Below, in pieces: positions 15,906 through 60,960 of a stretch of 64,000 nt of DNA. How positions within the stretch are numbered: position 1 is the first letter of the stretch; the number at the start of each line of letters is the position of its first letter. The notes below the pieces were generated by a model that searched no databases, had not been told where the DNA came from, and was given only the letters and a program-made list of their open reading frames with translations. Origin of the DNA: Octopus vulgaris (Eukaryota); contig OX597838.1 in NCBI GenBank assembly GCA_951406725.2, positions 44,020,001 through 44,084,000 of the forward strand, read 5' to 3'. The position numbers and the translations under genes were made by a program.

Positions 15906-16102
15906 GGACGTGCTGTCACTTCGGCTCCGAAGGTAATCGTTTATTTTAAGTATTTATAGCCCATATTTTGAGTACATTTTTGCAAATAAGGTGTGTAAGG
16001 TACCCAACTTTCGTTTGAGTGCTTTTCCAAGGGAGGAATTCGCCCCTAGGGGCAGTTTCAACCCTATTTAATTTTTGTAATTTCTTTCTCGACATTTTGA
16101 AA

Positions 16103-18317
16103 ATGTCGAGAAATTGTATTGTAGAACGATTGTCGCGTTCCTTTATCGACCAGCTTTCTCCTAGTCTGGAAACGCTAGGAGAAAAAAAGAATTTATGCGC
16201 GCAAAGTAATATCACCAATGGCTTTGCAATGAACGCTGCAACCACTTGTAGTATCAGCCCTGTCACCAACACCACCACTAGCAAGAACAACAAAGAGACT
16301 ACTACTGTTACCACCACCGCCTTCACCACCACCACCACCGCCGCCACCTCATCCACTACCTCAACTACCAACAACAACAACAATAACAATGACAAAAAAA
16401 ATAAAAATTGCACCACCATTTCGACATCTGCTGCCACAGCTGTCTCTTTTGCCACTGACACCACCACCACCAACAAAAAAAACAATAACAACAACAACAA
16501 TTCCGTTCAGACCTGTTTTACTCCAACAACAAGAACTGAAGGGAATAAACAAAAGACTGTGACCACCAAACAAATTGACAAAAGCTGCTTGAATACAGGG
16601 ATAAACTATGCAAGTAATTTTCCACCCCTTCCTACTTGCACAATCAAACCAAATACACCGATTTTACCAACTGCAGCCAACAACAACATCACCACCAGCA
16701 ACAACAATAACAAAACGACAACAAATTTCGACGAGGCGATAAAAGAAAATAAGACAACAGTATATTTTACTGCACAACAAATAAAAGACACGAACATTTC
16801 AATAACGGAAGTAGATGGTATAGTAAAAATAAACATACCACAAAAAATATTAGAAGATGAAAAAAAAGAACAATTATTTATAAAATAATTAATAAGAAAA
16901 CAAAAAGTCCAGAGAAGGCTAACACAAGCAAAATAGAAAAATGCTTGAAACCCATCTGGAACTACAAAGAGTATGTGACCTGGTGGAACAAGTTTGCACA
17001 CATACAAATGGTCTTCCACACTGAAGAGTTAGCAAGACGTTTCTAAAACGCTAACTCTTCATTCAGATGAACTTCAACTAACACCAAGCTATCGTGGACA
17101 GAAAGTGACTAAGATCACTTTAAACAATGTCCCAAAAATAGCTAACAATCTATGGCTAGTAAAGGCCTTATGTGTGAAAATGGAAGTTTTCACAATTTTA
17201 CAAACCACGGTCACGGAGCATAAAAACTGGGTGGGATCAAAAGTAGAATTTCTACTACATATAAACCTAGAAGACATAAAGAAAATACCCACCCAGATAT
17301 GTGTATCAGACGACCACAAGTTGTATGTGGTCGTCGATGGCAGAAGACCACGTTGCTACATATGCGGCAGTGAGCAACACCTCAAAAAAGATTGCAAATC
17401 TGCCGCAAGAAAACAACAGCAACAACAACAGCAGCCGGTAAAAACAAATAAACCAGCTTTACTACCCACACCACGTTTTGCACGAACAGGGCTAATCACA
17501 GAAAATCAACAAAAAACAAACCTCACCAACCAAACAACCACACCAACTGCACCAAGAACAGAAGCAACACCACCAACAACAACAACCAAGAATAAACCAA
17601 CTCTCAAACCAAGGACATCTGCCAAAAAGACACTCATCGAAAATGAACAATTACTACTCCAAATCCCCACAAAATTGACACCCCAAACAACACAACAATA
17701 CCTACAATCACTCAAACACAAAATACCCACACCTCACCTCCAAAACCGCATACACCACAACCTAACGCTCACCAACCAGCACCAACAACAAAATCAACAC
17801 AGTCTACAATAGACCCCAATATTTTCCCTCTTCCAAGCTCTGATTCTTCTGATTTGTCATTAGACGAAGAAGACACAGAAGATTGGCAAATAGCCACAGG
17901 GGGAGAAGAAAAAGGGGAAAAAAAGAAAAGAAAAGATAACAAACAAAGCAGGAAGATTCACCACTCCCGAAACAAAAACATCCACAGAAAACAAACACAT
18001 CAACACAAACACACCATCATCAAGCCCCCCCAACAATGTTGACAGCCATAAACACAAACAACCACGACCTAATGGAACACATTAGGTCAAACACCAACAT
18101 AACTGAAAACGACATAAAAACAAGTAACCACCCACGCACAACACCACCACAACACATTAAAATAATACACGTAACACAGAACACATACAGCACCCTGAAA
18201 TCTCTTTACCCTGATGCAGTAGGGAAATTTCAAAAGTATTCATCAAAGAAACTATACAAAACCCTCATAGAAGAAGACTGTGAGGTGAAAAACAAAGGAC
18301 TTTCGAACAACAAGTAA
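16103..18317 (+). pseudogene. E1 ORF1 (gag-like, Thr/Asn-rich N-terminus, CCHC knuckle), frameshifted
   Basis: MSRN start shared by all full-length copies; CYICGSEQHLKKDC; split over several ORF fragments. Confidence 0.85.
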
Positions 18318-18385
18318 CCTTTTCTCTCTCTCTTTCCTTTTTTGCACTTTCTTTTCGTGTGTAAAACACAATTTTTTATCGGAAC

Positions 18386-57341: not shown

Positions 57342-60300
57342 ATGCTCAGAATAGGTAGTATAAATGTACGTGGCTTGGGGTCGCCTTGGAAACAAGGCTA
57401 CCTGTTAAATGACATCAAGTCACTAAATCTGAATATCATAGCCATCAGTGAGACCAGACTCCACAGCTTGCGGGCACTCCAGCACATTTTCGGTACACAT
57501 TTCAACATTTATTTTTCTCCGTGTCTACCGAGAATGGGCGGAGGTGGCACCGCGGTGCTTATCCGGAAGAGTCTGGATCTCAAAGTAAGAGCAAATTTCC
57601 TAGACCCGGAGGGTAGGCTGGTCGTTTTGGATGTCGATGGCAGCAATGAGTGTGCTTTTCGACTGATAGCAGTTTATGCTCCGTCCTTAACAGGCCGACC
57701 AGATTTCTTTCGACGTCTAGAGTCTTTCATGGGAACGTCTCGTCCTTTACTTTTAGTGGGGGATTGGAATGCCACCCTGGACACGCATCTAGACTACGTG
57801 GGCAGAGATAGCAATAGAAGGGGATGCAAATGCCTCAAAGACCTGCTCAGACGTTTCCAACTGTCTGACAGGTACCGACTGGACCACCCGAATGTGCCAA
57901 TGTGGACATGGAGTAACCGCATCGGGTCGTCCAGATCATACTTAGATAGAGTATTCTGTAGGACAATAGATAAAAATAGTGTAGGTTGTCCACAATTTCA
58001 TATAGTCAGTTACACAGATCACAAGTTTGTGACTTGTACACTTGACTTAGATAAAACACATAGGCAGGGTCCTGGTTACTGGAAACTGAACGCGTCTTTT
58101 ACAGCACGACAGGTTTACAGGGACCGGATCAGCATAGAATAGAGGGAGAATTAGTTAAGGATTTAGAAGAGGCACTTAGAACTGGCATCGCGTCCAACGT
58201 GCTGGCGGCGAGATTGGCCCTCGACCATCACCTCAACGCCAAACACGAGGGATGCGTTGTCAGAGCTAGGATGCGTGCTCTGAGGAACGAAGGAGTTGGA
58301 GCCGCCCAAGAGGCCCGAGTGGTGGAGACGCAACGAGGCAACAGAGCCACCATCAAGTCTCTTATAGATGAACAGGGGCGCGAATTGCTCTTGCCTAAAA
58401 GGATGTGTGGGGCTTTTTAACAACACTTCACCCAACTGTTTGGGACAAGTGGTGAGTCAGAAAGCAGAGTGGACTTTAGTGCCTACCTGCATGCCTTGCC
58501 ACGACTCTCAGCAAGGGAGGTGGAGTCTTGTGAAAAGCCTATCACAGCTGCGGACGTACAGGATGCGATGGTAGGCTGCGCGAGAGACAAGTCACCAGGC
58601 TTGGATGGTCTGCCCTACGAACTTTATTTTCATATGCCAGACTTGTTTGGAGGCGTCTTGGCAGCTGTCTACTGCAACTGGCAGCAGAACGGGAGTATTC
58701 CTGCTTTTGTAAAGCGAGGAGCAGTGGCACTGATTAAGAAAGACCCAAACAAGGGGGACGTCATAGATAATTTCAGGCCCATCACTCTGCTCAACGCAGA
58801 TTTGAAAATTTTGGCCAAGGTGTTAGCCGAGAGGTTGGCGCTTGTCATCAAGAAACTAATCGACAAGGCGCAAACATGCGCCGTGCCGGGTAGAAGTATT
58901 CATGACAACCTCCATCTGATGCGCTACATCATAGACAGGGTAGTTAAAAATCCTGGCATGGGTGGGGCGCTGATCAATTTGGATCAATCAAAAGCCTTCG
59001 ATAGGGTAGACCATCACTACTTGGAGGCTGTGCTTAAAGCGGCTGGTTTCGGTCCAGTTTTCCGCGGTTGGATCGCTGCCTTATACAGCGGCATCCGCTC
59101 AGTAGTTCGCGTAAATGGTCATCTATCCAGACCTTTTAACATCATGCGTTCGGTTCGTCAGGGATGCCCCCTCTCATCGCTGCTGTATGTACTGACTCTT
59201 GAGCCACTACTGCGGAAACTGGCGACGCTGAGGGGCATCCCACGAGAGCTGGGATGCGGGAGGAGCGTGTCTGCATACGCGGATGACGTCACCGTCATAG
59301 TGTCGAGCTACGAGCACATCGAGCTGGTCGGCGAGACACTGAAAGAATACGAAGCGGTAACGGGAGCAAAAATTAACCGGGAAATGGGCTTGCGGCTCGG
59401 CACCTGGAGAAGCAAGCCCATGCCGTCCAACAGCGTCTCCATCGTGGGACGCTGGACGGACGGACCGGTTAAATTGCTCGGGGTCTGGTTCGGTTCGGAC
59501 CTCCAAATGGAGAAGAACTGGGGCGAGATAATGACTAGGGTGGCTACTCTCCCCCAGAAATGGGCTGAGAGAAAGCTATCTCTGAAAGGTCGGGCGGAGG
59601 TGGCGAACGCGTACATCGCATCCGTCATCGAGTATCGTCTGACCGTCGTGCCTTGTCCCGACCCTACCATCACCAAACTGGAACGCATACTCTTCCGCTT
59701 CTTGTGGAAGGGAAACGTTCCGATGGTTAGGCGATTCATTTGCTGCCAACACCCGCTAAATGGAGGGCTGGGCATGCCGTGGTTGATGATGCGCAGACAT
59801 GCGCTGAGACTGCGACATCTCCGGCGCTTCATAGACAACGGTGAACAGGTGTGGTCGCCTTTTGTGCGGCGCGCTTTCCCGCAGCTCGTCTCCTTGGACG
59901 AACTACAGTCATGGATCAAGCAGAGACCGAGGCTAGGCGAATGGCACCGCGAGTGTCGCGTTGCTCTTAAGCAACTCTGCCGTCCGGGATCGAACTTGTG
60001 CGACTCCATCACAACAAAGGCATTCTATAGAGGATTAGTGGAGGGGAGGTGCGACGACGAACTCGGGCAGAGTCTGGGCGTCGACGAGGAACACCTGACC
60101 CGCCTGTTCAGGACAACTTTCGGGCCGGGACCTATGAACAATCACCAAAGATCCCTGGCATGGCAGTGCTATCGAGAAGCATTACCTGTTCGGGATAAGC
60201 TCTACAGACACGGTTCCAGACACACTGGACCGACTTGCCCGAGATGCGGTCAGAGCGACGAAACCGTTCTGCACGCACTCGTGCAATGTCCAACCATTTC

Positions 60301-60655
60301 CGACCTGTGGGCTTATGCCGAACGGCTGCTGTCACGTGTGGGACGAATCCGCCTATCGGCCGAGTCTATCGTTTGAATTGCTCCGCCCCCTTCCCTCAAC
60401 CGGGAAGGCAAGGCAGTTTTCATCGTACTGGTGGCCATGGTGAAAGAATGTGTGTGGTGGACTCGAGCGAAAGGATTAGAGACAAACACTTACCTCTCTG
60501 GCCAATCGCTCATCAACTTTTTCAAGTACCACTTGAAAAGGAAGGTGAGAATGGAGAGGGAAGTTTTGTCTCGCGAAAGATTCAAAAAAAGATGGGTGAA
60601 TGTTGCAAAGATGGTGCGTGCTAGTAACGAAACCATTTTGAGCATGATCCTGTAG
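57342..60655 (+). pseudogene. E5 ORF2 (APE-RT-CCHC), with a deletion near 58134 and stops
   Basis: Complete APE motifs to YLDR..TDH; 635-aa open RT segment at 58469-60376. Confidence 0.95.
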
Positions 60656-60960
60656 ATCGTAAAAAAGAAAGAAAGAGAGCATTTTTGATCTCATGTGGTT
60701 ATTTCCTCCCTGACTGGGGTTCCCGTGGTCTTTTCTGTAGGCTTTTCTTCCCACGGATGAACCCAATCTTGTTATATCAATGTTTATATCATTATTTCTG
60801 TGATACACGATTTCCTTTTTTTTCCTTTTTTTTCCTCCTCTCGATCCCTTTTGATCGCAATCTTACATTTTTTAAATTTTTTTCCACCCTCGAAAAGAAA
60901 AGCTCTGCATTTGTATTTGTCCCCTCTGTATTCAGCCCTGTGTGGCTAATAAAAGAAAGT

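Follow-up and report, generated by a model that had tools for sequence, protein, structure and literature searches.

Six copies of one group of long interspersed nuclear elements (LINEs) lie in a 64-kb window of the Octopus vulgaris genome (64,000 nucleotides, contig OX597838.1, positions 44,020,001 to 44,084,000 of assembly GCA_951406725.2; the window is this whole stretch, and coordinates below are its own). Four of the copies, E1, E2, E4 and E5, combine two kinds of 5' end with two kinds of body in all four possible ways. All six are on the + strand and form two head-to-tail trains, E1-E2-E3 and E4-E5-E6, with (TATC)n between the copies, and all are broken. We use head for the 5' untranslated region (UTR) plus the start of the first open reading frame (ORF1), linker for the Thr/Asn-rich N-terminal part of ORF1, and core for the part that begins at an invariant NFA motif.

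The four longer elements differ in which head is joined to which linker, core and ORF2. E1 (15906..22110) is a full-length LINE with head A, linker and core alpha and ORF2 type a; (CTAT)97 stands directly before it, its ORF1 ATG is at 16103, its ORF2 runs from 18386, and both ORFs are disrupted by frameshifts or stops. Its head ends in a tract of ACC and GCC codons in the threonine (Thr) frame, the hinge (16310..16348, with (ACC)5 at 16325-16339), and block alpha1 (TCATCCACTACC) begins at 16349. E2 (22133..28045) has head B, subtype B2, on linker and core beta and ORF2 type b (ORF1 ATG at 22537, ORF2 ATG at 24548), with a hinge of (ACC)8 (22657..22680) between head B and the beta linker. E4 (48399..54669) has head A on linker and core beta and ORF2 type b (ORF1 ATG at 48598, ORF2 ATG at 50963); its tracts occupy 48760..48849, with (ACC)11 at 48760 and a hinge tract at ~48820-48849 that is followed by the beta linker (ACCAACATAAATGAT). 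E5 (54831..60960) has head B, subtype B5, on linker and core alpha and ORF2 type a (ORF1 ATG at 55248, ORF2 ATG at 57342), and its hinge, ACT(ACC)3ACG (55362..55376), is the founding join of head B5 to block alpha1. E5 belongs to a young clade in which heads are 97-99% alike. The remaining copies, E3 (28424..30744) and E6 (61215..62564), are 5'-truncated and carry a third ORF2 family, type c, which pairs genome-wide with cores delta and epsilon. The 3'UTR of E6 has a short insert at 62170-62243 after an A-run, and that of E3 has none.

The crossed pattern was confirmed by pairwise blastn and is far beyond chance. A first-pass annotation had reported the four combinations, and the motifs that it named are in place: head A (GGAC..GTCAC.TCGGCTCCGAAGG) starts at 15906 in E1 and ~48400 in E4, head B at ~22133 in E2 and ~54831 in E5, and body alpha (TCATCCACTACCTCAACTACC) at 16349 in E1 and 55377 in E5, with ORF2 beginning MLRIGSIN at 18386 and 57342; on E2 and E4 body beta has an ORF2 beginning MLKLGCVN at 24548 and 50963. 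E1 and E4 are 82% alike over 15900-16339/48396-48855, then share just a 42-bp patch until 18042, and are 78% alike from there. The match of E1 to E5 is 90% from 16334/55362 to 19174 and 97% after; that of E2 to E5 is 75% over 22121-22690/54820-55398, and that of E2 to E4 is 79% from 22948/48982 and 94% from 23463/49911. Before ORF2, E1 and E2 share patches of 73-125 bp at ~75% and nothing more. Because the divergences of the pairs are unequal (heads 82% and 75%, ORF1 bodies 90% and 79%), the four elements are not products of one reciprocal crossover; the reciprocal swap that had been proposed is not borne out by these values or by the trees described below, and the exchanges are a series of successive events.

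The four elements are, judging from their sequences, L1-type LINEs inserted in (TATC)n. ORF2 has an APE endonuclease domain (PF03372, 7.8e-15), a reverse transcriptase (RT) domain (PF00078, 1.8e-29) and a zf-RVT domain (PF13966, 6e-08), and its full-length relatives of ~1150 amino acids carry the same three Pfam families. Among solved structures the RT is closest to L1 (human L1 ORF2p, 127 bits, versus 61-69 bits for R2 proteins), in a search of PDB that is coarse because few clades have solved structures, and the best PDB matches of the endonuclease are L1 endonuclease and its variants. A cluster look-up of 10 ORF2 relatives returned no clade name. In ORF1 the linker is followed by the core, one CCHC knuckle, a second low-complexity stretch and a C-terminal domain, and zf-CCHC was detected in 18 of 20 ORF1 members at E <= 0.1. 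The core of E5 (55726..56420, end approximate), which starts at the NFA motif, is predicted to hold two RNA recognition motif (RRM)-like domains and the knuckle. The core predicted by AlphaFold2 matches tandem-RRM proteins with a best E of 6.9e-06 and low TM-scores, the Atlas lead was ZCCHC3-type RNA-binding domains (0.91), and a search of a protein collection with the core gave 457 candidates, none at E <= 0.001. In the same model the confidence score (pLDDT) is below 50 for residues 1-136 and a folded core comes after; on this basis the linker is predicted to be disordered.

The elements have a strong preference for one microsatellite. In the genome-wide sample described below, TATC/TGTC repeats adjoin 192 of 213 intact 5' ends, and TATC repeats follow 141 of 169 3' ends, which read AATAAA plus a few bases and lack the poly(A) tail of mammalian-type L1. 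One target type lies in more than 20% of flanks, the threshold for target-specific elements in the accessible text of PMC4494074. We call the group Tx1-like on the basis of architecture and target preference; the ORF2 searches returned no named Tx1 reference.

The modules are combined in many ways across the genome. We searched the 2.8-Gb genome (227 contigs) 11 times with heads, cores and an ORF2 start as queries and scored the best 40 of 164-1993 candidates per search, so that all counts are lower bounds and are biased toward the queries; of 246 listed match places, 120 were fetched at full length and the remainder in part. The 238 merged stretches held 246 ORF1 cores, 226 of them with a head and 20 without, a few being segmental or internal duplicates. 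Two sets of copies, L353 and L354 (identical, on C57 and C13) and L390, L484 and L485 (near-identical, all on C20), are segmental or assembly duplicates and inflate the counts slightly. The pool comprises four heads (A; B with subtypes B2 and B5; C; D), five ORF1 cores (alpha, beta, gamma, delta and epsilon) and three ORF2 types, and the cores fall into 12 head/core classes. Head A is joined to alpha in 59 copies, to beta in 48 and to delta in 14. Head B is joined to alpha in 19 (B2 7, B5 12), to beta in 20 (B2 16, B5 4) and, as B2, to gamma in 6. Head C is found with delta (28), beta (6) and epsilon (6), and head D with gamma (20). Every class is spread over 3-23 contigs, and all four pairs seen in the window are dispersed, multi-copy families.

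The heads themselves are in part related. Heads A and B share a motif of 70-125 bp at 72-76%, which is present in two copies in B; heads A, B and D share a motif of 60-180 bp at 72-80%, and head C has no match to any of the three. The motif common to A, B and D holds a palindrome (GCCCCTAGGGGC) and lies in the window at 16003-16063, 22226-22298 and 22451-22561, 48487-48559 and 54912-54997. We regard this palindrome motif as a candidate promoter element.

Trees built separately from heads and from cores disagree. With rows of short matches omitted, body labels changed 6 times on the tree of head A (117 rows), 9 times on that of head B (44 rows) and 6 times on that of head C (37 rows), and head labels changed 6 times on the tree of core alpha (78 rows), 6 on beta (72), 4 on delta (40) and once on gamma (25). 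On the trees of heads A, B and C and cores alpha and beta, the number of changes was in each case below that in all 200 shuffles. The labels are clustered, as those of amplified families would be, yet they are far from congruent. A tree of the 5.4-kb alpha body (32 copies, with 3 known chimeric or duplicated copies omitted) forms one ladder, with A and B5 alternating along it, and its starred branches force five head changes. Approximately unbiased (AU) tests on this tree rejected a clade of B5 copies (8 rows, p = 4.9e-6) and a clade of A copies (20 rows, p = 1.4e-54). Based on the class counts and the conflict between trees, we conclude that exchange between lineages is real, recurrent and genome-wide.

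Most non-homologous joins between heads and bodies are in or across an (ACC)n tract. The linker is a chain of unique blocks with runs of ACC and AAC between them. The block that follows the first hinge in 206 headed copies gave six well-populated pairings, in which heads A, B and C are joined to alpha1, beta1 or delta1: A-alpha1 (58), A-beta1 (46), A-delta1 (13), B-alpha1 (12), B-beta1 (32) and C-delta1 (36), with 7 ambiguous copies and 2 scored as C-beta1. A seventh join, of the end of the delta linker to beta1, is at a later ACC tract. We mapped 13 N-terminal junctions, of which 7 are in or across a tract, 1 is probably so and 5 are elsewhere. Alignment of child to parents for 8 events gave the same 7 tract junctions (A to delta, B5 to alpha twice, B5 to beta, delta linker to beta, A to beta as a singleton, and C to delta), with the eighth probably at the first tract. 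The events were picked after inspection, and on that ground a binomial test of tract enrichment, although computed, was not used. Runs of (ACC)>=3 make up 0-8% of linker length in 8 representatives, and in copies with an intact N-terminus all 175 of 175 such runs are in the Thr frame; joins made in register therefore keep ORF1 open. The linker folds weakly (-7 to -22 kcal/mol per 150-nt window, versus -45 to -48 in ORF2), a difference that is driven by composition and was obtained without a shuffle control. Two of the four 5'-truncations inside the linker begin at a triplet run, a sample too small and too biased to weigh. The tract that had been proposed as the hinge is thus the main in-frame joint for these joins, and it is not the only one, since five mapped junctions are elsewhere in the linker and exchange also took place in a second zone, after the zinc knuckle.

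Two later swaps moved the B5 head onto the newest alpha body. In 16 young alpha copies, sites at 55414-55601 mostly divide by head, and sites from 55617 divide by age, whatever the head. After the founding tract join, the B5 head and linker were put on the newest alpha body twice by homologous exchange with young A/alpha copies, in a zone downstream of the E5 hinge (55602..55853), one of the intervals being 55609-55616. On the body tree, young copies of A/alpha are intermixed with those of B5/alpha (end branches of 0.4-1.4%), while their head and linker sites divide by head. In these two events, co-active families combined a young body with an older 5' end.

Recombinants that have amplified have their breakpoints in the two low-complexity stretches of ORF1, mainly in the first. 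The families are 75-89% alike in ORF2, yet chimeras within ORF2 were seen solely as single copies: painting 85 full-length bodies by nearest family gave 2 clear inter-family switches inside ORF2, both single copies. Core and ORF2 type were concordant in 166 of 184 copies scored. In the discordant copies gamma is found with type a, epsilon with c, b or a, and beta with c, and the switch point is after the knuckle, near a conserved WQIATGGKRKR motif for beta to c. Examples from this second zone are L411, L413 and L177 (beta core, type c ORF2), L416 and L419 (epsilon) and L458 (gamma); at the L411 join, the motif coding for WQIATGG is present twice.

Chimeric assembly of repeat copies is largely refuted as the source of these families. 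The possibility deserves consideration because in 4 of 4 runs the main contig assembled from short reads ends at or just past the E5 tract, which marks the tract as a branch point in assembly graphs, and because one stretch of E4 indicates that exact copying between neighbours can occur in this assembly. That stretch (49917..50492, + strand) consists of 576 bp identical to E2 23469-24067 (449 + 128 bp exact, with one short deletion); it has 15 states private to E2, after which E4 reverts to the A/beta type, ~430 bp of ORF1 are duplicated, and the source is 26 kb off. The patch is due either to local gene conversion by a neighbouring copy or to an error of assembly, and it leaves the head/body junctions untouched. 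The dispersal of each of the 12 classes argues against chimeric assembly, as do class-specific sites (8 linker positions present in 8 of 8 young B5/alpha copies and 0 of 8 A/alpha copies). In addition, a contig spans head B5, the tract and the beta linker in 3 of 4 runs (3 studies, organisms A, C and D), a check that bears on the join of head B5 to beta and in which 55386-55514 was skipped. We consider it very improbable that the combinations are artifacts of assembly.

We favor a mechanism in which 5' modules (the UTR and the start of ORF1) were joined many times to different cores and ORF2s, mostly at the Thr-coding (ACC)n, by template switching of the RT during insertion, followed by selection; we put its probability at about one half. 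The block structure, the 12 classes, the conflict between trees, the positions of the junctions and the common frame of the tracts are direct observations, and the steps that follow are our model. Copying would start at the 3' end of the element by target-primed reverse transcription. The nascent complementary DNA (cDNA) end with (GGT)n would then anneal to (ACC)n in the RNA of another family, within the G-poor and weakly folded linker, and copying would run on to the 5' end of this second RNA. Joins that are in frame would be likely to survive selection and amplify, and, with a linker that is predicted to be disordered and stands ahead of the RRM/CCHC core, the hybrid protein would remain functional. 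Lineages that share a linker could later switch by ordinary homology 230-480 bp downstream; such switches would put an older 5' module on the newest body. Template switching is favored by joins near the end of cDNA synthesis, by the use of short in-frame microhomology and not the long homology of ORF2, by young co-active lineages and by the combination of a young body with an older head. Several results weigh against it. There was no direct signature of reverse transcription, and two tests for one failed: an A-to-G excess across both modules, a mark of RNA origin, was not seen in two singleton recombinants, and a 976-bp internal duplication (C10), considered as an RT stall at the tract, was rejected on finding its junction ~40 bp upstream of the tract. 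The five junctions that avoid the tract are the two homologous swaps and three non-homologous joins, namely B-beta to alpha at a duplicated ATCTCACCT, C-delta to epsilon, and B to the start codon of gamma (in L351 and L355, head B and part of the beta linker are fused in frame just before gamma's own start codon). The low pLDDT of the linker is partly due to an alignment with almost no rows in that region. Outside the 85 painted bodies, at least 3 further single-copy, out-of-register joins are present in ORF2; joins occur everywhere, and selection may therefore make most of the pattern. The E4 patch, with its E2-private mutations, indicates DNA-level copying or assembly error.

Two other readings overlap with template switching, and all three may act together. 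In one, ectopic recombination between DNA copies (unequal crossover, single-strand annealing or gene conversion), often between tandem neighbours in one microsatellite, makes the joins at (ACC)n, and a few active products amplify. In its favor, 51 of the 181 headed copies with enough flank have the 3' end of another element within 700 bp upstream, and the E4 patch is an apparent instance, although it may be an assembly error. However, recombination of this kind should prefer the 3.7-kb ORF2 to a tract of 15-40 bp, and ORF2 chimeras are few and single. Moreover, most genomic copies are broken (an open N-terminus was scored in 83 of 226 headed copies), so that joining of DNA copies would seldom give an active element. 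We judge DNA recombination a real rival, if somewhat unlikely as the principal source of the joins. The other reading holds that there is no mechanistic hotspot: joins arise at similar rates along the element, and selection alone retains those in the linker, which are in frame and harmless. The single-copy ORF2 chimeras (at least 5 in all), the common frame of the tracts in a linker predicted to be disordered, and the location of the second exchange zone in a low-complexity part of ORF1 are all consistent with it. Against this, unamplified joins seem denser in the 0.6-kb linker (~4 copies) than in the 3.7-kb ORF2 (at least 5), in small numbers and a biased sample, and the tracts are less than one tenth of the linker yet have most of the non-homologous joins. 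We consider selection alone unlikely. A stronger form of our favored reading, in which (ACC)n is a built-in, frame-preserving recombination hinge, with the Thr frame kept in all families, RT switching raised there and a combinatorial pool of several promoters re-mounted on the newest enzyme, is a real possibility that we hold only tentatively.

Other repeats lie between and beside the two trains. Old fragments of the ORF2 of the same LINE are present at 43840-44592 in both orientations, 72-76% alike to E4 and E5, with a 115-bp inverted match between fragments. A tandem repeat at 34242-34759 has 3.1 copies of a 165-bp unit with 94% matches. Two ORFs lie on the - strand: one of 159 amino acids (37669-38148), which we take to resemble the N-terminal part of a mariner transposase, and one of 173 amino acids (33473-33994), which we take to resemble a fragment of a Helitron/PIF1 helicase.

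The source of new 5' ends in L1-type elements has long been a question: three mechanisms have been proposed, and breakpoints are usually known just between consensus sequences. The octopus families are young and active together, and many of their junctions, which differ in age, can be located with a precision of a few bases in one short repeat that lends itself to recoding; they therefore allow a direct test of template switching versus DNA recombination and selection. Consensus libraries would merge or split these modules wrongly unless head and body are handled separately. Recombination between L1 families is already known. We found neither a triplet-repeat hinge in a LINE ORF1 nor a report of these recombinants in the literature, with subscription papers and Repbase reports mostly outside the search. 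An annotation of octopus repeats includes L1-Tx1 families with recent activity, and the strings 'chimer' and 'recombin' do not occur in its main text (PMC13282606); its supplements may hold family consensus sequences.

The comparisons that follow rest on the accessible portions of the cited papers. In mouse L1, families recombine and recruit new 5'UTRs, and strand switching by RT is among the three mechanisms put forward (Sookdeo et al. 2013, PMC3600994); the breakpoints of at least 6 events are spread over ORF1, ORF2 and the 3'UTR, with no mention there of a repeat hinge common to them. In horse L1 one breakpoint is mid-ORF2 (PMC5872511), and the 5'UTRs of non-mammalian vertebrate L1s are mostly conserved at the tip, with one replacement in a lizard (PMC5381506). 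As in mammalian L1, co-active octopus families trade 5' modules as well as segments of ORF1, trees built from different regions disagree and older 5' ends are taken up by young 3' ends, so that the suggested analogy to 5' replacement in L1 seems to fit; the direction of the B5 transfers, older head onto newest body, is that reported for rodent L1 (PMC3600994). Unlike in mammalian L1, the octopus joins that amplified are concentrated in a single linker of ORF1, where most are at an in-frame triplet tract, and the N-terminus of the protein is part of the exchanged module. Microsatellite-targeting LINEs of the Tx1 clade include Kibi in (TC)n, Koshi in (TTC)n and crocodilian families in (TTCC)n/(TTTC)n (PMC4494074, PMC3812793). 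The octopus elements resemble them as APE-type LINEs with a strong bias to one microsatellite and tandem stacking in the target, and differ from those families as described there in the target, (TATC)n/(GATA)n, and in module exchange, which those descriptions do not include. In LINEs of the Jockey superfamily, ORF1 evolution is reticulate, with deep shuffling of domains inferred between lineages and no mapped junctions (Metcalfe and Casane 2014, PMC4120745). The octopus group is similar in that ORF2 is tree-like and ORF1 is modular and shuffled; in contrast to the Jockey superfamily, its junctions date from recent events inside one group and are placed to within a few bases.

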